Counted from the stretch's first letter, positions 4,754-14,400 are shown. The stretch: 32,000 nt of DNA from Corynebacterium glutamicum ATCC 13032 (GCF_000011325.1 NC_003450.3:540001-572000); one strand, 5' to 3'. Numbers and translations: made by a program. Notes: generated by a model from the letters alone, not told the origin.

Positions 4754-7042
4754 CTAAGAAGCAGTACGTCCTGTTGCTTCAAGGCGAACCACAACTGACT
4801 TGGACACTGGAGTGTTGGATTTTTCAGCTACTGAATCCAATGGAACCAATACGTTGGCCTCAGGGAAATACGTGGTGACGCAGTCCCTCGCGGTGTCATA
4901 TTCCACCACTCGGAAATTCGGTGCTCGGCGTTCGCCATCATCAAAGACAGAGACGATATCGACGATGTCTCCATCCTTGAGACCACGTTGCTTACAATCT
5001 TGAGGATTGACGAACACTACGCGGCGACCATTGCGAACACCGCGGTAGCGGTCATCCAGACCGTAAATCGTGGAGTTGTATTGATCATGTGAACGTACCG
5101 TGTTCATAAGCAAATAGTCCTTGGGTAGCTCAATCACATTGGTTTCATTAACCGTCAATTGGGCCTTGCCATTGGATGTGTTGAAGATGCGCTCACGAGG
5201 TCCGTTGGGGAGGAGGAATCCACCGGGGTTGTCGATGCGACGGTTGAAATCGTGGAACCCAGGAATGGTGGCCTCGATGTGATCGCGGACCACATCGTAG
5301 TTATCAATCATCGGCTGCCAGAAGGCATCACCGAAGGTCTGCTTACCGATGGTTCCAATGATGTCGCATTCGGACTTCAAATTCAGATCCTTGTTGGCGG
5401 TTCGTTTACCAGTGGATGCGTGAACAGCGCCGGCAGAATCCTCAACTGTCACACGCTGGACGCCTGACTTTTGGACATCCTTATCTGTTCGAGCAATCAC
5501 CGGAAGGATAAGTGACTGCTCACCAGGCCATGCTTGTGAACCATTGGGCTTGGTCGACAGATGCACCGTCAGCTCATTGGATTCCATGCCCTTTTCGACA
5601 ACAGACGTATCTGAGGACACTCGAACAAGGTTGCCACCGAGGGAGAGAAAGAACTTGGTCTTGCCTTCGCGCATGGCTCGCAGGGAATTTACCGTGTCGA
5701 AGCCGTGCTTGCGGGGCACATCGAAACCAAACTCGTTTTCAAGAGCAGCAAGGAATGCCTCCGGCATTTTCTCCCAAATACCCATGGTTCGATCACCCTG
5801 GACGTTTGAGTGCCCACGAAGCGGGGCAGTGCCTGCGCCAGGCTTACCAATATTTCCAGTAAGCAGCAGGAAGTTCACCATTTCACGGATGGTGTACACA
5901 GCGTTCTTATGCTGGGTGACCCCGAGAGTCCATGACACCACCACGGTGTCAGACTTTTCCACCATGTCAGCGGCCTTGTTGATCTCCGCTGCCGTCAGAC
6001 CGCATCCCTTGAGCAGAACCTCATCATCGAGTGATTTGAGGTGCTCGATGGTTTCATCCACACCTGAACAGAATTTATCCAAGAATGCATGATCTAGGGC
6101 ATCTCTACGGATGAGTTCCTTGTTGAGCGCCTGGAAGAATGCGCGGTCTCCATCAAGACGGATCTGCAAGTATTCATCAGCAAGTTTGTCTGAAATGCTC
6201 AACGCGCCCTTGACTGATTGGGGCTCACGGAATTTCATCAGACCGGTCTCTGGCATGGGGTTCAGCGCCAGAATCTTGCCACCGTTTTCCTTCAATTCTT
6301 TGAAAGCCGTCAACGCACGTGGGTGGTTGGTGCCCGGGTTTTGTCCCACGGAAATCAACAAATCAGTGTTGTAGAAATCCTCCATCACCACGGATCCCTT
6401 GCCCAAACCCAAGGTCTCACCCAAGGCAGTACCGGTGGACTCGTGGCACATGTTTCCACAGTCTGGAAGATTATTTGTGCCAAGTCGGCGGGCTAGAAGC
6501 TGCAGCATATAAGCCGGCTCATTGGGTGCTCGACCAGAGGTGTAAAACACCGCTTCATCTGGCTCGATCTCGCGGAGCTTCGACGCAATGATCGCAAATG
6601 CACGATCCCAAGAAATAGGGCGGTAGTGATCATCGCCAGAAGAACGATCATAAAACATGGGCTCGGTGATTCGGCCACGCTTTCCCAGCCAGTGATCGGT
6701 CTTTTCCCGCAGATCATAAATAGAATGCTCTGCCCAGAACTCTTTGCCGGCACGATCAGGTGTTGTTTCCTCGGCGACCGCCTTGGCACCGTTCTCGCAG
6801 AACTCAACCACACCAAGGTTGGCAGTGGAAGGCTCAGGCCAAGCACAACCAGGACAGTCGATGCCGCCTGGTTTATTCATGGTGAGCAACGGCAGCAGGG
6901 CACGATTCGGAACAGCATGCTGGAGCGCATGCAAAACGCCTGGCACACCAGCAGCAGAAGTAATGCGCCGTCCCACATCCGGATCATCAAATTCATTCGC
7001 GGTGGGATTCACGTTCGAAATCTCAGTTGGAGGGGTTGTCAT
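4754..7042 (-). CDS. fdhF: Molybdopterin-dependent formate dehydrogenase, FdhF/YdeP family
   Basis: 762-aa ORF with an N-terminal Cys cluster (CPGCAWPE...FCENG), a molybdopterin oxidoreductase core (GNMCHEST, NPGTNHPR, VTQH) and a C-terminal MopB-CT-like barrel. It is clustered with fdhD. Confidence 0.9.
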   Translation of the reverse strand: MTTPPTEISNVNPTANEFDDPDVGRRITSAAGVPGVLHALQHAVPNRALLPLLTMNKPGGIDCPGCAWPEPSTANLGVVEFCENGAKAVAEETTPDRAGKEFWAEHSIYDLREKTDHWLGKRGRITEPMFYDRSSGDDHYRPISWDRAFAIIASKLREIEPDEAVFYTSGRAPNEPAYMLQLLARRLGTNNLPDCGNMCHESTGTALGETLGLGKGSVVMEDFYNTDLLISVGQNPGTNHPRALTAFKELKENGGKILALNPMPETGLMKFREPQSVKGALSISDKLADEYLQIRLDGDRAFFQALNKELIRRDALDHAFLDKFCSGVDETIEHLKSLDDEVLLKGCGLTAAEINKAADMVEKSDTVVVSWTLGVTQHKNAVYTIREMVNFLLLTGNIGKPGAGTAPLRGHSNVQGDRTMGIWEKMPEAFLAALENEFGFDVPRKHGFDTVNSLRAMREGKTKFFLSLGGNLVRVSSDTSVVEKGMESNELTVHLSTKPNGSQAWPGEQSLILPVIARTDKDVQKSGVQRVTVEDSAGAVHASTGKRTANKDLNLKSECDIIGTIGKQTFGDAFWQPMIDNYDVVRDHIEATIPGFHDFNRRIDNPGGFLLPNGPRERIFNTSNGKAQLTVNETNVIELPKDYLLMNTVRSHDQYNSTIYGLDDRYRGVRNGRRVVFVNPQDCKQRGLKDGDIVDIVSVFDDGERRAPNFRVVEYDTARDCVTTYFPEANVLVPLDSVAEKSNTPVSKSVVVRLEATGRTAS

Positions 7043-7164
7043 AGGTCACAGTCTAGACCCGGCAATTGAACCCATGCCGAAAAATGAATTCTTCAATCTA
7101 TATGGGGGTATGTGGAAAACCTAAAATCAAGAGGACTCCCAGCACATGCGATAAAATCTCACAT

Positions 7165-7315
7165 GTCGTTTGATACTGCAAAGTACCGAATCGCACTGTT
7201 AGTTTTTCAAGGGAAGCCGGTTAACAATCCGGCGCTGACCCGCAACCGTAGATCACCTTCGCCTGGAGTTTTCACGCAAAGGGGACAAGCCGGATTACTT
7301 GGAAAACTGACATTG
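7165..7315 (+). promoter_or_regulatory. Cobalamin (B12) riboswitch-like leader, copy 1
   Basis: The core at 7211-7250, GGGAAGCCGGTTAACAATCCGGCGCTGACCCGCAACCGTA, matches the conserved cobalamin aptamer core (AGGGAA..GGT..AA.CC...GCTGAC.CGCA.C.GTA). A B12-box-like AAGCCGGATTACTTGG lies at 7287-7302. A possible P1 pairs 7201-7206 agtttt with 7303-7308 aaaact. TAAAAT at 7152-7157 is a possible -10. Confidence 0.75.
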
Positions 7316-7457
7316 ACTTAGAACCTTTTTGTCGTGGACTACGAAAAGCTTGCATCTTCAAATTCTGCGCACAAAGTGTTCTAAGACGACGTCTGCCCAT
7401 CGGCGCTCTAATGCACATTACAGCGTTTACAGAATTGAAAATGAAAGGTTCAAAGCC

Positions 7458-8087
7458 TTGACCATTACTTTTAGCCGCGTTGCTCTGACCACCCTGGCAG
7501 TCACCGCAACCACTTTGTCCCTGAGCACTGCTGCGAATGCACAGTCTTCCTTGTTGGATAAGACTCTTGATGCCCGTCAGTGCATCGATGCAGACAACGT
7601 CTGGGTCTCAGTTGACTATGGTGCAGATTCCGAAAAAGAACCAGAGGGCGCATGTGCCACCGAGTTCACTGATGGTGTTGTAGCTCTTGAATCTGCTGGG
7701 TTCAAACTGACCTTTGACGAATCTGAAATGGGCAAATACATGACCGGTATCAACGGAGTTGTTCCTGATTGGGTTGAAACTGGAACTTACTGGAGTTACT
7801 ACTCTGGTGAAGTCGCAGATGATTACAGCGTGGACTACACCTACTACGAGGTTGGTGCATCTAATTCTGAACCTGAAGGTGGAACTGTTGAGGCTTGGGT
7901 TGTTGGCACCGGCGAGGAAACACCAGCACTCGAGACTCTTCCTGAAACTCCAGCAGCAACCGGATCTTCTGAAGACGGCGGCTGGATTGCAGTCATCGCA
8001 GGTCTTCTCGCACTGATCGGTGGTGGAGTTGCAGCTTTGTACCAGGGCTTGATCACTATCCCAGGTCTGGTTCTGCCTAAGTTTTAA
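7458..8087 (+). CDS. Secreted, C-terminally anchored DUF4430-like (transcobalamin beta-domain-like) protein
   Basis: In-frame TTG at 7458 preceded by GAAAGG. Signal peptide TITFSRVALTTLAVTATTLSLSTAANA. The domain carrying C..V.V, AGF, YWSYY and GTVEAW is paralogous to 11851-12927. C-terminal hydrophobic anchor WIAVIAGLLALIGGGVAALY. The ORF-track start at 7329 would run into the riboswitch. Confidence 0.75.
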   Translation: MTITFSRVALTTLAVTATTLSLSTAANAQSSLLDKTLDARQCIDADNVWVSVDYGADSEKEPEGACATEFTDGVVALESAGFKLTFDESEMGKYMTGINGVVPDWVETGTYWSYYSGEVADDYSVDYTYYEVGASNSEPEGGTVEAWVVGTGEETPALETLPETPAATGSSEDGGWIAVIAGLLALIGGGVAALYQGLITIPGLVLPKF

Positions 8088-8114
8088 GCAACCTAACCTA
8101 AAGCTTCAAACAAG

Positions 8115-8156
8115 AGTGCCCACCGACCCTTCAAGATCGGTGGGCACTTTAGGTTT
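8115..8156. terminator. Bidirectional terminator between convergent units
   Basis: 12-bp perfect stem (8115-8126 agtgcccaccga against 8137-8148 tcggtgggcact). T-rich flanks follow on both strands (ttaggttt on plus, cttgtttg on minus). Confidence 0.7.
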
Positions 8157-8183: not shown

Positions 8184-8990
8184 TTAGACCCGAGGCACCC
8201 CGGCCTCCCCGAAGTCACGCTCGACGCCGAAAGCGGCGCGGCGGCTGGCGCGTCGTAAAGCACCTAAAACGGGTTTGGCTGTGAGCAGTAATAGCACTGA
8301 GGTGAAGAAGGCGCGGCCGAGATCCCAACCCATGGATGTGGTGAGGCAGAACAGCATGAAGGTGTGGAGGTTTTCCAGGACGGGCGCGCCGGGTGTGAAG
8401 GAAAGCCCGCTGGTGACACCGATGGCGTAGGGCCAGAAGCTCATGTTCATCATGGTTCCGTAGCCGAGTGAAGAGACGATGGCGTATAGGACGATGATGA
8501 GCATTTCCTTTTTGCCGCGTACTTGGGGGAGTAGGCCGGCGCCGAAGCTGACCCAGGCGGCTGCGAGCATTTGGTAGGGGAGCCACGGTCCGATTCCTGC
8601 GGTGAGCAGCGCGGATGCGAACAGTCCGGTGTTGCCGAGGATGAATCCGAAGCCGGGTCCGAAGGCTCGTCCGCCGAGGATGAGGACAAAGAAGACTGCT
8701 TCAAAGCCTGCTGCGCCGGCACCGAATGGTCGGACTACGGCAACCATGGCGGTGAGGACGCCGAGCATGGCTACGGCTTTAACGTCGAATCCGTTTTCAC
8801 TGATTTCGGCGATGACAGCGGCCAGCACGAGGGGAATGACGATCGCGATGTAGAGGGGCGCTTGGGCTTTGTCGGACAGGAAGGATTCCGGGTTGACGAT
8901 CAGCGGCCAGAAGAAAATCACGATGCTCAAAACCGCAAGGAAGCTTAAGGTGAGGAAGGTTTTGGGCTTGAGTGTGATGGCGTTGATCAT
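8184..8990 (-). CDS. Polytopic membrane protein, putative substrate (S) component of the ECF-type transporter
   Basis: 268-aa, Gly/Ala-rich ORF with 6 or more predicted TM segments. Its start overlaps the ATPase stop (ATGA at 8987-8990). It is the last gene of the riboswitch operon. No direct family recognition. Confidence 0.65.
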   Translation of the reverse strand: MINAITLKPKTFLTLSFLAVLSIVIFFWPLIVNPESFLSDKAQAPLYIAIVIPLVLAAVIAEISENGFDVKAVAMLGVLTAMVAVVRPFGAGAAGFEAVFFVLILGGRAFGPGFGFILGNTGLFASALLTAGIGPWLPYQMLAAAWVSFGAGLLPQVRGKKEMLIIVLYAIVSSLGYGTMMNMSFWPYAIGVTSGLSFTPGAPVLENLHTFMLFCLTTSMGWDLGRAFFTSVLLLLTAKPVLGALRRASRRAAFGVERDFGEAGVPRV

Positions 8991-10696
8991 GAGATTTCAC
9001 CATGCCCTAGCGCAGCTTTCACGGCCGAGACTGTGAGCCAGTGTGATTCCTCTTGGATGCCGGCGGTGATTTTTGCGACTTGTGGGGCGTAAGCCGGTGA
9101 TGCGGGGAGGATTTCTACGGCTGTGCCATCGGAGATGATCTTTCCAGAGGCCATAAACAACACTCGGTCGGCGCACAGTGCAGAGAATTCCACGTCGTGG
9201 GTGACCACCAAAATGGCGTGGCCGTCGTCTGCGAGTTGTTGGAAGGAGCGGGCGAGGGATTTCTTGCCGTCGTAGTCTAGGCCGCGGGTGGGTTCGTCGA
9301 AAAATACCACGCGGGGTTTTGCGGCGAGTTGGATGGACAGCGCGAGGGAGAGCTTTTGGCCTTCTGATAGATCACGTGGGTGGAGATGGTCCGGGATATT
9401 CGGGACCAGTGAATCCAGGATTTCCCGCGTGGTGCCGGCGGGTGCTGCGGCATCTTTATCAGAGCGTGCGAGCTCTGCATGCACGGTTGATTCATACAAA
9501 ATATCGGTCGGTGTTTGCGGAACCATGGACACAAGATTGCGCCGCTTGGCGGGCTTTAAAGTTTTGGGGTCTGTCCACGAAAATCCCGCGGCCTCATCAA
9601 GCACCTGCACCGAGCCCTGATTTCTAGTCCCTGAACCTTGTAAAGCCCACAGCAGGGATGATTTTCCGCAGCCGTTTCGGCCCATGAGCACGGTAATTTC
9701 ACCGGAGTTGAGATTCAAGTTCACGCCGTCAACGGCACGGATTTCGGGGAAATCAACCATGATATCTTCGGCGATCAAAAGTGGCTGGACAGCGTGGTTG
9801 TGTAATTTGTTCACCACTAAACCACGCTGATACAGGCGTTTGCGCATGTCAGCGGAGTGTGCGCGTGCATCGCGGATCGATAGCGGTAGGGGAGCCCAGC
9901 CAGCCCAGCGTCCTAATTCCACAATGGGTGGTGCCACATCAGAATCAGCCATGATTTCTTCCGGCGTCCCAACAGTGACGTGCCCATCAGCGCCCACATG
10001 CGCCACGCGGTCCACGTACTGCAGTACGCGCTCGATGCGGTGTTCAGCAAGCACTACGGTCATCGCCAAGTCATGAGCCAGCTTGGTTACGGTTGCCAGC
10101 ACATCCTCGGCACCATTAGGGTCCAAAGCGCTGGTTGGTTCATCCAAGATAATCAGCGCGGGGCGAGTGGTCAGCACCGCGCCAATCGCCACGCGCTGCT
10201 GCTCACCACCAGATAGTTCCGCCAATGGCACGTATCGCAGCTCCGCGATGCCTAAAAGATCAAGGGTTTCCTCTACGCGCTTGCGCATGACCGCAGGTGG
10301 GAGCCCTAATTGCTCCATGCTGTAGGCAAGTTCTTCTTCAACCGTGTTGGTGATAAAACTTGCCGCCGGATCTTGCCCAACGACGCCGACCACGTCGGAA
10401 AGCATGCGTGGTGGGAAATCACGCGTATCCCGGCCGACCACGCGCACGCGCCCATCAAGTCGGCCGCCGGTCGCATGCGGCATCGCGCCGGACATCGCGT
10501 TCAGCAGCGTCGATTTGCCGGAGCCGGTGCGCCCCACAACCAGCAGGATTTCGCCTTCAAAAAGCGTCAGATTCACGTCGCTGATCTGCGGCGCCGCCAG
10601 CGTGCGCTCATCGTCATAATACGAGGCAGCGACGCTTTCCAGTTCCAGCACGGGGTCCGTCGACCACGCAGTGCGCGCGCTAAAAGGAGCACTCAT
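8987..10696 (-). CDS. Fused double ABC ATPase (ECF A-A' type, CbiO-like)
   Basis: Two ABC cassettes: Walker A GRTGSGKST and GRNGCGKSS; signatures LSGGEQQRV and LSEGQKLSL (degenerate); Walker B LILDEPTSALD and VFFDEPTRGLD. Confidence 0.93.
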   Translation of the reverse strand: MSAPFSARTAWSTDPVLELESVAASYYDDERTLAAPQISDVNLTLFEGEILLVVGRTGSGKSTLLNAMSGAMPHATGGRLDGRVRVVGRDTRDFPPRMLSDVVGVVGQDPAASFITNTVEEELAYSMEQLGLPPAVMRKRVEETLDLLGIAELRYVPLAELSGGEQQRVAIGAVLTTRPALIILDEPTSALDPNGAEDVLATVTKLAHDLAMTVVLAEHRIERVLQYVDRVAHVGADGHVTVGTPEEIMADSDVAPPIVELGRWAGWAPLPLSIRDARAHSADMRKRLYQRGLVVNKLHNHAVQPLLIAEDIMVDFPEIRAVDGVNLNLNSGEITVLMGRNGCGKSSLLWALQGSGTRNQGSVQVLDEAAGFSWTDPKTLKPAKRRNLVSMVPQTPTDILYESTVHAELARSDKDAAAPAGTTREILDSLVPNIPDHLHPRDLSEGQKLSLALSIQLAAKPRVVFFDEPTRGLDYDGKKSLARSFQQLADDGHAILVVTHDVEFSALCADRVLFMASGKIISDGTAVEILPASPAYAPQVAKITAGIQEESHWLTVSAVKAALGHGEIS

Positions 10697-11844
10697 TAAA
10701 CTTCGGCCCTTTCTGGGCTATTTATTGCTTTTCGACGCTTGACCCTCACTTTGTTCTTCGGCAAGCGGGGCGTCAAGAATCCTGGCATCGTCGCCACAAC
10801 AAGTCCTGCCACAACGAGCAACGGAACGGTGTCTGGCATATGCAAAGGAACCCAGGTGGTGATCATGGAACCTGGATCAAGGTATCGTGTCAGCGCAGCC
10901 ATGAGCAGCGGAATCACACCTGTGATGCACACAAGCCATTCCGCAGCACCCCAAGGCAACTGATCAAAAGTGGTGGATGTTTTTCTATGTGAAGCAACGA
11001 CCAACGAAATGATCAAGAAGCCCACGCCGGTAATAAACACCGGAACGGCAACGAACATCGGTGATGATGCATCTAAGACCACAAACAGACCAACGGTCAC
11101 GCCGAGTATTCCGAATGCACCAAAAATAGAGGTCACACGCTGTTGGAATTTGGATACATGAGCCTGCCTGCCATAACCACGGGCATCCATGGAATTAGCC
11201 AGGGCCAAAGACCTATCCAAAGTGTCCTGGAAAACCGGCATCAAAATCCGCGCGAAACCACGAACACCTTTGGCATCATCACCACGCAAGGTTCGTGCAC
11301 GATTAATGCGGAACGCCGACTCAGCCATCTGAGGTGCAATGGAAATACCGATGACCACCGCAGTTCCCAGTTCGCCCAATGCGCCAGGCAACGATTTGAG
11401 CAGCTTCTTGGGATCCGCCAAAGAGTTCGCAGCACCCACCGCCACGATCATCGTTCCAAGCGTTAAGCCTTGCGTCGTCGCGATGATCAGACCCTCGAGA
11501 TACACCGTGCCAAACACGTGGATACCCGCAGCCCATTCCGGCAACTGCACCGGCGGGATCCGAAACAGTTCAATGGTGCCAATTTTTGCTCCCACCACAA
11601 TGTGCATGACCAACCGGTACACCACGAGCCAACCCGCGATCATCAAATAGATCGGGAAAGCACGCGACCACGGCGATGACCCACGACGGTTAAACACCAC
11701 AAAACACAACGTGGCAAAAGTGAGCGCCAAAATATAAGGATTGTTGGTCATGCTGGCACAACCAGCAATACCCAACGCCCACACCCACCACGCCCAGGGA
11801 TGAACCATCCGCCGGGACAGCACATATCGCTCAATCCATTTCAC
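10696..11844 (-). CDS. ECF transporter T component (CbiQ/EcfT family) with an extra C-terminal membrane domain
   Basis: Both coupling-helix Ala-Arg-Gly type motifs are present (INRARTLRG and SMDARGYG). At 382 aa it is longer than I recall for EcfT proteins. About 4 additional hydrophobic segments follow the second motif. There is a 1-nt overlap with the ATPase start. Confidence 0.85.
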   Translation of the reverse strand: MKWIERYVLSRRMVHPWAWWVWALGIAGCASMTNNPYILALTFATLCFVVFNRRGSSPWSRAFPIYLMIAGWLVVYRLVMHIVVGAKIGTIELFRIPPVQLPEWAAGIHVFGTVYLEGLIIATTQGLTLGTMIVAVGAANSLADPKKLLKSLPGALGELGTAVVIGISIAPQMAESAFRINRARTLRGDDAKGVRGFARILMPVFQDTLDRSLALANSMDARGYGRQAHVSKFQQRVTSIFGAFGILGVTVGLFVVLDASSPMFVAVPVFITGVGFLIISLVVASHRKTSTTFDQLPWGAAEWLVCITGVIPLLMAALTRYLDPGSMITTWVPLHMPDTVPLLVVAGLVVATMPGFLTPRLPKNKVRVKRRKAINSPERAEV

Positions 11845-11850
11845 GAAGCT

Positions 11851-12927
11851 TTAACCCTGGACCTCTGAACGACGAATCGCCCACGCCGCCACAGCAGACG
11901 CTGAAACCAAGGAAATGACAGCCAGTGTGAGTCCAATGATCCATCCCTGAGCAGAAGAATCCACCGTGCCTGTGGCGTACGTCTGCTGCGTCGAACCCTC
12001 AGCCATGACGTCTCCATCTTGGCCCGCAGGCGCCATAAGAACCTGCGTGGTCATCGGATCAACTTCAGGAGCTTCTGCCACCGCTGTTGCCTGCGGTTGG
12101 CTATTTGCTTCACCAGCCCCAGCTGGGGCTTGGACAGCAGCAGTGGTCTTAGCGGCTGCTGCAGCAACCAAGTTCTCGTACTGACCTTTAGTAATCGAGT
12201 TTCCTTCAGAATCCTGATACACCAATACCTCATTAGGGTTCTCAGGGTTTACCTCAGCAGTGGGTTCAGCTGCTTGTCCTCTTGCCGAACCAGCTCCAGC
12301 CCCTGCGATAGGAGCTTCAGTAGTTTCAGTGGGCTCTTCGTCACCCCCTAAATCGGCGATAGGGGACTCGGAGGTTGGGGTTGTGGTGATGAAATCATTT
12401 GGATCAAAATCAATTTTGTAATCCGGATCCGCGGAGTCTAACCCCAACTCCGCCTGAGATTTACTCACCGGGATCGCGCCGGGACGATCAGTATCTCCCC
12501 AATACCACGCTTCAACAGTGCCGGGTTTGGGGTAGTAGAGGAAAGCTCCAAGGTTGCTGTATTCCCATTCATCTCCGCCGAGGGGAGCATGCCAATAAGA
12601 CCAATAAGCTTCAGCAGGTGATGCGGTCATGCAATCGTCCACATCAGGACCTGGGAAATCATTGATTCGGCACAAGAATTCTGGAAACTGAACGGTGGTT
12701 TCCACATCAAATCCGGCATCAAGAAGCGTTTGATAGCCATTTCCGCCGGCGTCAGCACAGCCGATGGTGTTGCCCTCAACCATCACTGTCACTTGGTCGT
12801 CTTCACAAGGCGTGGTCAAGGCGTGCGCAGAAGGAACCCATGGCGATATGGCAAGAACAATCCATAGTGCGACTGCAGCTGCAAAAGACTTCAGCGACAG
12901 GTGAAAAGTTGAGGTTCGAGACATCAC
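11851..12927 (-). CDS. Secreted, C-terminally anchored DUF4430-like (transcobalamin beta-domain-like) protein with a long acidic/Pro-Ala-Thr linker
   Basis: Signal peptide ...AAVALWIVLAISPWVPSAHA. N-terminal domain with C.DDQVTVMV, AGF, YWSYW and GTVEAWYWG. Low-complexity linker, then C-terminal TM WIIGLTLAVISLVSASAVAAWAIRR. The start is GTG 12927 or, more likely, ATG 12924 (GAGAAG 7 nt upstream). Confidence 0.75.
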   Translation of the reverse strand: MMSRTSTFHLSLKSFAAAVALWIVLAISPWVPSAHALTTPCEDDQVTVMVEGNTIGCADAGGNGYQTLLDAGFDVETTVQFPEFLCRINDFPGPDVDDCMTASPAEAYWSYWHAPLGGDEWEYSNLGAFLYYPKPGTVEAWYWGDTDRPGAIPVSKSQAELGLDSADPDYKIDFDPNDFITTTPTSESPIADLGGDEEPTETTEAPIAGAGAGSARGQAAEPTAEVNPENPNEVLVYQDSEGNSITKGQYENLVAAAAAKTTAAVQAPAGAGEANSQPQATAVAEAPEVDPMTTQVLMAPAGQDGDVMAEGSTQQTYATGTVDSSAQGWIIGLTLAVISLVSASAVAAWAIRRSEVQG

Positions 12928-12944: not shown

Positions 12945-14129
12945 TTAAAACTGCAGGTTAGCCATCATTGGTCCCATGACACCAGCGATGGCGGCAAGGA
13001 TGGCCAAGATGGCGATGATAATTCCAGCGCCGCCAATTCCACCGGTGGATCCCTCTGAATCAGCTGGGGGAGTTGGAATTTCTGGATCTGGAGTTGGATC
13101 TACTGGGTTCGCAATGGTGATCAGTTTATCGTTGGCGTAGTTACCGCCTGCAAAACCTAATGCTGCTTGGCCAGTTGCGCGTCGAATCTGATCGCTAATC
13201 GCAGTGTTGGTTTCCTTAGCCTTCACGGTGAAAGCAAAGCCACCCTGAATCGATGGGTCTGCATCTTCGCCAAATTGAACAGATGCCAGGTATTCACGAG
13301 CCTTGAGGTAGTTTTCCTCATCGCCCGCAAGAGCAAAAGCGGATCCGACAATTCCCGTGGAGTTGGAATTCACACCGGTCCAAGTATTTTTGACACCACC
13401 GGTCTCATCCATCGTGGTGACGAGGTAATCGAGAGTGGCTTGTGTGGTTGGATCCTGCGCACCATTTGCCAGAGTCAAAGCCTGTGCAGCCATTGCAGTG
13501 ACATCGGAATCCGTGGTTTTGCATGTAGGTTCGATTGCTGAGGCTAATTGGACACCACCGTCGGAGCACACTTGAGTTTTAAGGAATTCTGTTGCGCGCT
13601 CGGCTGCTTCGGTTTCACCGACGCGGTGCAGAGCTAGAACGCCCCAGGCCTGGCTGAAGTTATTAATTGCAGTTGTGGCTTCACCATTATCTAAGTTTTT
13701 GATCTGACCGTTTTCTTGAACAGCGCTGACAAGTTGCGCGATAAAATCAGCATCTCTGACGCCGAGGGCATCTTGGAAAGCTACGGTCTTGGCTAGACGA
13801 TCGCTGAAGATGTAGTCAGAAACTGAGACATAGCCCTCGAGCTCCGGAGCAATTGCAGCATATGCAGCGTCGATCTCTGGAGAATCAGGGGCAAGCGCAT
13901 TTAGGGACAGCAACAGATCCTGATTGAGCCCAATATCTGGAGTACCTACAGGCCCAGGGATGAGGCCATTCGTTGCAAATTCTTTTTCGATGAATTGGGT
14001 AGCTAATTGAATATCCGATGATGCATCCTGTGCAGCAACGACCTGTGGAGCCAACAGGGAAACACCGGTTGCTAAAGCCACGGTTGCAGCAGACCAGCGA
14101 ATGGTTCTCTTCCCACGTAGATGAGCCAT
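12945..14129 (-). CDS. Secreted, C-terminally anchored alpha/alpha-barrel (prenyltransferase/terpenoid-cyclase-repeat-like) protein
   Basis: Signal peptide ...TVALATGVSLLAPQVVAAQD. Recurring helical-hairpin motifs (QENGQIKN, CSDGGVQL, DETGGVKNTW, SIQGGFAF). Pro-rich stalk, then TM IIIAILAILAAIAGVMGPMM. It is the first gene after riboswitch copy 2. The fold assignment is an inference. Confidence 0.65.
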   Translation of the reverse strand: MAHLRGKRTIRWSAATVALATGVSLLAPQVVAAQDASSDIQLATQFIEKEFATNGLIPGPVGTPDIGLNQDLLLSLNALAPDSPEIDAAYAAIAPELEGYVSVSDYIFSDRLAKTVAFQDALGVRDADFIAQLVSAVQENGQIKNLDNGEATTAINNFSQAWGVLALHRVGETEAAERATEFLKTQVCSDGGVQLASAIEPTCKTTDSDVTAMAAQALTLANGAQDPTTQATLDYLVTTMDETGGVKNTWTGVNSNSTGIVGSAFALAGDEENYLKAREYLASVQFGEDADPSIQGGFAFTVKAKETNTAISDQIRRATGQAALGFAGGNYANDKLITIANPVDPTPDPEIPTPPADSEGSTGGIGGAGIIIAILAILAAIAGVMGPMMANLQF

Positions 14130-14234
14130 GAAAACATGTCCTTAAAATGAATTGGAGAAATGTTCTGACCCCGCTTTAAGGCACACATTACTGCGCTTCA
14201 ATACGGGCTTCAGAACCGTAATCCTCGACGGTTT

Positions 14235-14400
14235 GGAGCCACTCATTTCTTATTCAGGTGATCCGGCTTAATGCAATACCTGGTGAAAGCGATTGCATAA
14301 TACGGTTGCGGGTCAGCTTCGGGTTCTCACCGAAATTCCCCTGAAAAAGAACGGATGGTGTCCTACACCATAAAATCACCATCGGTGCTGGTCAAATGAA
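14235..14400 (-). promoter_or_regulatory. Cobalamin (B12) riboswitch-like leader, copy 2
   Basis: On the minus strand, 14340-14301 reads GGGAATTTCGGTGAGAACCCGAAGCTGACCCGCAACCGTA, the conserved aptamer core. A short P6-like hairpin follows (tgcaat...attgca). The B12 box AAGCCGGATCACCTG lies at 14269-14255. The leader continues to ATG 14129. Confidence 0.85.

Follow-up and report, generated by a model that had tools for sequence, protein, structure and literature searches.

A cobalamin-type aptamer upstream of cg0620, a gene for a predicted transcobalamin-beta-like surface protein of Corynebacterium glutamicum

In Bacteroides, the transporter for vitamin B12 is fed by a surface-exposed accessory binder, BtuG, a beta-propeller lipoprotein of the Gram-negative outer membrane; ECF-CbrT is a B12 importer of the energy-coupling factor (ECF) type. 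Here we describe a locus of Corynebacterium glutamicum ATCC 13032 in which the gene cg0620 follows a cobalamin-riboswitch-type aptamer, encodes a predicted surface protein and lies next to the ECF operon cg0621–cg0625. The likeness to BtuG and ECF-CbrT, which we propose here, is one of functional logic (a surface accessory binder plus an ECF importer of B12); cg0620 differs from BtuG in fold and envelope, and the S component, cg0621, is not recognisable as CbrT. We worked on a stretch of 32,000 nt (the window; genome bases 540001–572000) and count positions from its first base. We consider it probable that cg0620 is a separate, monocistronic B12-regulated unit with a role in corrinoid capture at the cell surface.

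The operon next to cg0620 has a described counterpart in Lactobacillus sakei, lsa1836–1840, a system that was linked to heme uptake; HHpred assigned one of its two secreted proteins to the transcobalamin beta domain and the other to the alpha domain (10.1101/864751). Both operons encode an S component, a double ATPase (AA'), a T component, a beta-like protein and an alpha-like protein, in the same order. The L. sakei paper mentions neither a riboswitch nor an extra, separately transcribed beta paralog, whereas both C. glutamicum units carry cobalamin riboswitches.

The element upstream of cg0620 resembles the riboswitches of Rfam clan CL00101, which comprises RF00174, RF01482 (adenosylcobalamin, AdoCbl) and RF01689 (AdoCbl-II). 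It has their core, B12 box, P4, P5 and P6 helices and 3' P13 hairpin, and the gene whose 5' leader contains it is associated with B12 uptake. The element differs from them in scoring far below all curated thresholds, in its unusual L4 loop (UUAACAAU) and 33-nt P6 insert, and in having no recognisable terminator or sequestering helix. The protein is predicted to share the fold of the beta domain of transcobalamin and intrinsic factor and of DUF4430 (5no0, 5np4, 2pmv and 3u7z; Foldseek probability 1.00), with template-modelling (TM) scores of 0.61–0.75 that are normalised to these small targets. Sequence identity is just 12%–19%, and the cg0620 domain stands alone on a membrane anchor, whereas the transcobalamin beta domain is fused to an alpha domain.

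The aptamer in the cg0620 leader

An earlier note on this DNA had placed a diverged second aptamer core at 7211–7250 and a B12-box-like element at 7287–7302. Reading the sequence directly, we found the 40-mer GGGAAGCCGGTTAACAATCCGGCGCTGACCCGCAACCGTA and the segment AAGCCGGATTACTTGG at these positions, and a sub-threshold RF01482 match together with covariation supports the aptamer. The core segment includes GCUGACCCGC; the clan's core (GGGAAGCCGG...CCGGCGCUGACCCGCAACCGUA) and B12 box (AAGCCGGA) are both present and, in a MAFFT alignment of 13 upstream regions, almost invariant, as is 7211–7250 as a whole. Three CGG/CCG pairs (7291–7293 with 7246–7248) are invariant in 14 sequences. The loop core of P13 is common to the operon riboswitch, and the motif CCGTCGNGGANTACGG occurs in both paralog sets.

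At the Rfam gathering thresholds (50 bits for RF01482, 31.5 for RF00174 and 36.5 for RF01689), a scan of the whole window gave no element at 7150–7460, and the sole cobalamin riboswitch was that of the operon. A permissive scan of 7050–7500 returned RF01482 at 7185–7355 with 29.4 bits (E = 0.0016 for 451 nt, borderline on its own when rescaled to 32 kb); an overlapping RF00174 match was weaker and was suppressed. The RF00174 hit anticipated at 7100–7460 was thereby obtained in part: neither RF00174 nor RF01482 reaches gathering there, but the permissive threshold gives a match. Because the Rfam scores are below gathering, the case for an aptamer rests on comparative evidence.

We gathered 14 related loci first, two from an alignment-based genome scan (A2), one from a metagenome scan and most by exact-protein look-up. 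Sixteen other loci were assessed for an upstream element, with the extra C. glutamicum copies of protein P0014 (L005 and L006) outside the count. At 15 of these 16 loci, the gene was immediately preceded by a match to CL00101 or to the covariance model R1 described below; the exception, L015, is inside an operon. With permissive Rfam scans, a CL00101 match stood immediately 5' of the gene at nine of 12 loci (23.7–45 bits, none at gathering).

RNAalifold, run on eight long-form cg0620-type elements alone, gave the family helices with eight compensatory pairs. The model R1 was built solely from eight cg0620-type elements, the window's included, and recovered the seven of them that were among the sources searched at 132–149 bits; the 147.8 bits of the window's element are expected by construction because it is one of the training sequences. 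R1 also scored 74–81 bits on the bona fide riboswitches that precede the operon in three species (80.2 bits for that of the window) and detected compact elements upstream of Corynebacterium gallinarum-type genes (E = 0.004–0.012). In a pooled alignment, 87.6% of pair cells were paired, compared with 35%–43% when partners were slid, and 29 of 40 base pairs had compensatory changes, that is, changes on both sides; none of 500 shuffles reached any observed measure. This alignment leans towards structure, being fitted to the model and including three operon paralogs; the slid-partner control and the independent RNAalifold result agree with its covariation. In the MAFFT alignment, the B12 box was wrongly matched to the ribosome-binding site of C. 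gallinarum-type genes; the covariance-model alignment places a compact, P6-less aptamer there instead. From this comparison of sequences we conclude that a true cobalamin-type aptamer occupies 7187–7353 and that it is a paralog of the operon riboswitch (Table 1).

Might the element instead be a decayed copy of the operon riboswitch that has lost ligand binding, so that cg0620 is expressed regardless of B12? Its 29.4 bits against a gathering score of 50, the lack of a recognisable expression platform and the lack of a detected transcription start site (TSS) for cg0620 would fit such a copy. A relic would not be so maintained, however: the core is near-invariant, compensatory changes preserve the helices between lineages with proteins of only 47%–70% identity, and cobalamin-type elements also precede independent distant relatives. 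We judge decay to be very unlikely and retain the reading of a genuine aptamer.

Upstream of the aptamer, six lineages have a TAnnnT hexamer at the same place in the alignment (as TAAAAT, TAAACT, TATTCT or TAACAT), which makes TAAAAT a candidate −10 element; a promoter scan with an E. coli-type consensus found nothing for cg0620. Downstream, a plus-strand scan detected no intrinsic terminator between the aptamer and the cg0620 start codon, and minimum-free-energy and partition-function folding of 7187–7480, with the aptamer enforced or free, gave no clear switch. The segment CUUAGAAC (7317–7324) is the perfect complement of GUUCUAAG (7377–7384) and pairs at seven of eight positions with GUUCAAAG (7449–7456), between the Shine-Dalgarno sequence and the start codon; GAACCUUU (7321–7328) is the perfect complement of AAAGGUUC (7444–7451), which covers the Shine-Dalgarno sequence. 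These complementarities look like a putative sequestrator–decoy pair. We set that pairing aside: by eye it is kept at one related locus (L010) and not in Corynebacterium callunae, and folding shows no switch.

The cg0620 protein and the neighboring ECF operon

Published RNA sequencing (RNA-seq) anchors the window through the start of fdhF (cg0618) at 547041 (window 7041), the cg0625 TSS at 554361 (14361) and the predicted terminators of cg0620 and cg0621 at 548113–548148 (8113–8148) (PMC3890552). Its supplement lists cg0620 as a monocistronic plus-strand transcript (PMC3890552), which bears out the single gene proposed to follow the second riboswitch. The start of that gene had to be corrected. 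The mechanical open reading frame begins at 7329; database homologues begin at MTITFS and the Shine-Dalgarno sequence GAAAGG (7443–7448) stands 9 nt upstream of the TTG at 7458, so we dropped 7329 and place the coding sequence at 7458–8087. According to the same supplement, the fdhF mRNA is leaderless and starts at 7041–7042 on the minus strand (PMC3890552). The 415-nt intergenic region would therefore hold two divergent promoters ∼110 nt apart and the riboswitch.

The product had been described as secreted and C-terminally anchored, and both the sequence and the structural model agree, with a signal peptide at residues 1–28 and a hydrophobic helix at residues 176–195. No LPXTG sortase motif was found in cg0620, only LPETP (NCBIfam LAETG, E = 0.11), and Gram_pos_anchor matched one of 18 family members (E = 0.034). 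Within the family domain, Cys42 and Cys66 are invariant. AlphaFold2, given an 18-sequence alignment, modeled residues 41–160 with a mean predicted local distance difference test (pLDDT) score of >85 in each 10-residue block. The best 17 Foldseek matches of the model in the PDB (E = 6e-5 to 6e-3) were all transcobalamin, isolated transcobalamin beta domain, intrinsic factor or the DUF4430 structure 3u7z, and the matches that followed were insignificant; 5no0 and 5np4 matched with E = 1e-4 and a TM score of 0.61, and 3u7z with a TM score of 0.70–0.75. The idea of a DUF4430-like product thus stands at the level of the predicted fold but not of Pfam sequence score (13.6 bits, compared with a cut-off of 23.8); weak DUF4430 matches appear in nine of the 18 family members (best E = 0.0029).

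The likeness of cg0620 to the operon-encoded protein at 11851–12927 (cg0624), first noticed by eye, persisted in pairwise alignment (BLASTP, 30% identity over 92 aa, E = 5e-5) and in the alignment of profiles (hhalign, 97.4%, E = 1.5e-11, over 105 columns that include both conserved cysteines). Pfam family PF28005, the name in precomputed hits for the SCO2322-type ECF-associated secreted proteins to which cg0624 belongs, gave no hmmscan match to cg0620 or cg0624 in the Pfam copy searched, even at E ≤ 10; a distant relative, P0036, has a weak precomputed PF28005 hit but none by hmmscan at E ≤ 1.

RNA-seq shows cg0621–cg0625 to be a five-gene operon on the strand opposite cg0620 (PMC3890552). 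Its riboswitch lies in the 233-nt 5' untranslated region (UTR) of cg0625, measured from the published TSS at 554361 (PMC3890552). The S component has a weak match to ECF S components of the FolT type, and C. glutamicum MB001 has a protein with 100% identity to the 394-aa operon protein. The model of cg0625, of moderate quality, is an alpha/alpha toroid and has squalene-hopene cyclases and prenyltransferase beta subunits as best Foldseek matches; the protein has a weak NCBIfam SCO2321 match, and a sequence search of the PDB gave nothing relevant. The alpha domain of transcobalamin also belongs to the alpha/alpha-toroid fold class. For cg0625, "alpha-like" is a statement of fold class only, because transcobalamin is not among the top 50 matches. 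Database names of the "terpene cyclase" kind arise because the model resembles terpene cyclases and prenyltransferases; neither the secreted, anchored layout nor the operon context suggests a catalytic role. The RNA-seq supplement also records a "new antisense transcript" from genome position 553397 on the plus strand (window ∼13397), antisense to cg0625 (PMC3890552).

Between the two units, a bidirectional terminator had been proposed at 8115–8156. A strong hairpin does lie at 8115–8148, but its T tracts are weak, a terminator scan accepts the minus strand only, and the RNA-seq study classes it as "no significant termination" on both strands (PMC3890552). With U tracts this poor, transcription reading through the hairpin could produce RNA antisense to cg0621 that modulates the ECF operon, in which case the unit would be mainly regulatory and its protein secondary; the RNA-seq class and the conservation of the convergent arrangement also point that way. 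Set against this, purifying selection clearly acts on the protein, in which 21 columns, the Cys pair among them, are invariant and the domain is well folded in the model. Furthermore, convergence onto the ECF operon is not required, because a glucose-6-phosphate dehydrogenase (G6PD) gene separates the units in C. gallinarum and in a metagenome-assembled genome (MAG). One distant stand-alone relative (L014) has a response-regulator gene downstream and no ECF gene within its 2.5-kb contig. We regard a mainly antisense function as extremely unlikely and continue with the protein as the product that matters.

Distribution of the riboswitch–gene unit

The cg0620 family is narrow in the indexed database, with 36 clusters, the named ones all from Corynebacterium. 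At every cg0620-group locus of sufficient length, the gene lies between fdh genes and the ECF S-component gene and is convergent with the ECF operon. The G6PD gene (L002 8547–9890 and L013 3791–5134) stands between the cg0620-type gene and the operon in C. gallinarum and the related MAG. Family proteins of these lineages are only 47%–70% identical and share the 21 invariant columns mentioned above. A profile search of 1.84 billion representatives widened the family to 424 clusters at E ≤ 0.001 (73 at E ≤ 1e-10). Many of the wider-family proteins are 200–300 aa long, and others reach 600–1500 aa and carry leucine-rich repeat (LRR), immunoglobulin (Ig) or CWB2 domains. Examples of the large proteins, with LRR, Ig-like or CWB2 domains, are P0048, P0050, P0052, P0057, P0063, P0064 and P0068; the cg0620-type domain is N-terminal in all except P0048 (internal, residues 1007–1120), and Pfam annotates it in none of them.

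Cobalamin-type elements also precede distant stand-alone members. The gene for P0053 begins 92 nt past the end of an RF00174 match of 26.8 bits (gathering, 31.5); the next gene downstream has a faint SCO2322 hit. Upstream of the gene for P0046, an RF01689 match of 36.0 bits (gathering, 36.5; E = 2.5e-6) ends 36 nt before the gene start; this gene is monocistronic and convergent with its downstream neighbor, and its product has a C-terminal hydrophobic tail as in cg0620. The only family member examined that has no upstream element is P0036, which is inside an operon. A Corynebacterium contig (L011) carries two family genes in tandem, each behind its own long-form aptamer, which suggests that the riboswitch–gene unit may duplicate as a cassette. 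One of the tandem genes encodes a ...GLLSS tail and the other a ...LPKF tail. Some members have a compact aptamer instead, without P6 extension or P13 (best Rfam match AdoCbl-II, 17–36 bits), which ends ∼20–40 nt before the start codon. One protein family is thus served by two aptamer architectures, and different cobalamin forms may accordingly be sensed. The unit is found again in distant relatives among the actinobacteria, in one case in tandem, and so is a conserved module and not a peculiarity of this genome.

A riboswitch of this kind could be real and still tie to B12 status the level of a protein that does not bind corrinoids: one with a general role at the surface or in adhesion, or one that binds another tetrapyrrole, such as heme. 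The domain family is outside Pfam DUF4430 and heads surface proteins with LRR, Ig and CWB2 domains, the homologous ECF system of L. sakei is linked to heme uptake (10.1101/864751), and B12 riboswitches precede adhesin-like genes in Cutibacterium acnes (PMC9600381). On the other hand, the significant structural matches are without exception B12-binding beta domains or DUF4430, an ECF operon that is under riboswitch control and has genes for a paralogous domain and an alpha/alpha toroid always adjoins the gene, and the riboswitch association recurs in distant relatives. We consider a non-corrinoid role unlikely, though a serious alternative, and prefer corrinoid capture.

Table 1. Features of the cg0620 locus and of related loci; positions are those of the window unless a locus is named
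Feature	Coordinates	Strand	Basis or remark
Candidate −10 hexamer TAAAAT for cg0620	7152–7157	+	Conserved TAnnnT (putative)
Cobalamin-riboswitch aptamer, long AdoCbl-type, with P6 extension and 3' P13 hairpin	7187–7353	+	Sub-threshold RF01482, covariation
Outer closing helix, 5' strand	7194–7211	+	Pairs with 7298–7315; changes on both sides in 16/17 pairs
Conserved aptamer core: GGGAA, P4 hairpin (7216–7233), GCUGACCCGCAACCGUA	7211–7250	+	Read directly
P6 extension hairpin	7253–7285	+	6/7 pairs with changes on both sides; length varies between lineages
B12-box-like segment AAGCCGGAUUACUUGG	7287–7302	+	CGG 7291–7293 pairs with CCG 7246–7248
P13 hairpin CUUUUUGU-CGUGGACU-ACGAAAAG	7325–7348	+	5/6 modeled pairs changed on both sides
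Rest of leader (putative expression platform)	7354–7457	+	Includes Shine-Dalgarno GAAAGG 7443–7448
cg0620 coding sequence	7458–8087	+	TTG start, 209 aa; database homologues begin MTITFS
Signal peptide, residues 1–28	7458–7541	+	ANA/QSS cleavage-type site read from sequence; pLDDT low for residues 1–35
Transcobalamin-beta-like domain, residues 38–160	7569–7937	+	AlphaFold2, Foldseek, hhalign
C-terminal hydrophobic membrane-anchor helix, residues 176–195	7983–8042	+	Hydropathy maximum 2.29 at residue 176; modeled helix 177–195
Strong hairpin common to the convergent cg0620 and cg0621 transcripts	8115–8148		−29.8 and −32.4 kcal/mol (61-nt segments, two strands)
ECF genes cg0621 (S component), cg0622 (double ATPase) and cg0623 (T component, CbiQ)	8184–11844	−	Pfam ABC_tran and CbiQ
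cg0624, secreted anchored protein, N-terminal domain paralogous to the cg0620 domain	11851–12927	−	BLASTP, hhalign
cg0625, secreted alpha/alpha-toroid protein (candidate alpha partner)	12945–14129	−	Model pLDDT 65.7
Operon cobalamin riboswitch, paralog of the cg0620 element	14203–14364	−	RF01482 52.4 bits; R1 80.2 bits
Tandem units of L011	1–26, 160–762, 847–994, 1084–1812		First aptamer cut by contig end
Compact aptamers	L002 7808–7879, L003 2808–2879, L013 2913–2984, L014 99–218, L018 757–821		L014 by R1 (Rfam 112–180)

A model for cg0620 and its meaning

In the model that we favor, a promoter near 7152–7157, with a predicted start near 7164, would drive a leader of ∼295 nt, of which 7187–7353 folds, as homology and covariation show, into a long-form AdoCbl-type cobalamin aptamer. 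Intracellular cobalamin, once bound, would most likely lower cg0620 expression, as judged from the behavior of the class on uptake genes. Control would act through translation initiation and/or Rho-dependent termination, the likeliest modes because the leader has no intrinsic terminator. The product would be exported and tethered by its C-terminal helix and would display one domain with a confidently predicted transcobalamin-beta-like fold, which most likely binds corrinoids at the cell surface and feeds the adjacent ECF transporter. There, cg0620 may act alone or as an alternative beta partner of cg0625, parallel to its paralog cg0624. The protein would be a good candidate helper for B12 capture, if ordinary in kind.

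Several observations weigh against this model. A curated CL00101 score is reached at no cg0620-type locus, this one included; folding gives the Shine-Dalgarno sequence an unpaired probability of 0.27 when the leader is free and 0.30 when the aptamer is enforced, with no ligand-dependent change; and the RNA-seq study detected no TSS for cg0620 (PMC3890552). On the protein side, cg0620 misses the Pfam DUF4430 (PF14478) cut-off of 23.8 bits (13.6 bits, E = 0.096), its sequence-profile search of the PDB finds no transcobalamin and nothing relevant, and transcobalamin alpha domains are absent from the top 50 Foldseek matches of cg0625. The homologous L. sakei system is tied experimentally to heme and not to B12 (10.1101/864751), and because the domain also stands at the head of large LRR, Ig and CWB2 proteins of the surface, its role there may be a more general one.

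A more far-reaching picture is that the cassettes of riboswitch plus beta domain form a modular, duplicating actinobacterial family, whose beta-like subunits, each with its own sensor (long AdoCbl-type or short class-II-type), would be interchangeable partners, on the cell surface, of one alpha/alpha-toroid protein in a combinatorial "split transcobalamin." We think this improbable and offer it as a speculation; if true, corrinoid lower-ligand specificity and regulation would be tuned paralog by paralog.

Searching the literature, with incomplete coverage and regulon databases outside it, we found no paper on a cobalamin riboswitch before cg0620, and the literature on DUF4430, on transcobalamin-like proteins with riboswitches, on SCO232x and on squalene-oxidase yielded no description of the unit. 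The claim that the arrangement is undescribed holds to that extent; a cobalamin riboswitch on an uptake-associated gene is nevertheless the canonical use of the class. The reference transcriptome paper has an Rfam table of 16 elements with no cobalamin riboswitch (PMC3890552). Both riboswitches of the locus appear to be absent from its annotation, though its cg0625 5' UTR contains the RF01482 element (PMC3890552). The cg0620 element and its relatives consistently score slightly short of the Rfam thresholds, so annotation by threshold counts too few instances of B12 regulation in Corynebacterium and in the actinobacteria related to it.

The locus places two cobalamin riboswitches in C. glutamicum, an organism used both in industry and as a model. 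The family of the regulated protein is uncharacterised and outside Pfam, with a transcobalamin-beta-like predicted fold and 424 representative clusters. Capture of B12 at the Gram-positive surface before ECF import is far less studied than the Gram-negative route, and cg0620, cg0624 and cg0625 make a small, genetically tractable candidate set. The wider implication is that split transcobalamin-like proteins under riboswitch control, with extra beta paralogs, may be in use at the surface of Gram-positive actinobacteria.

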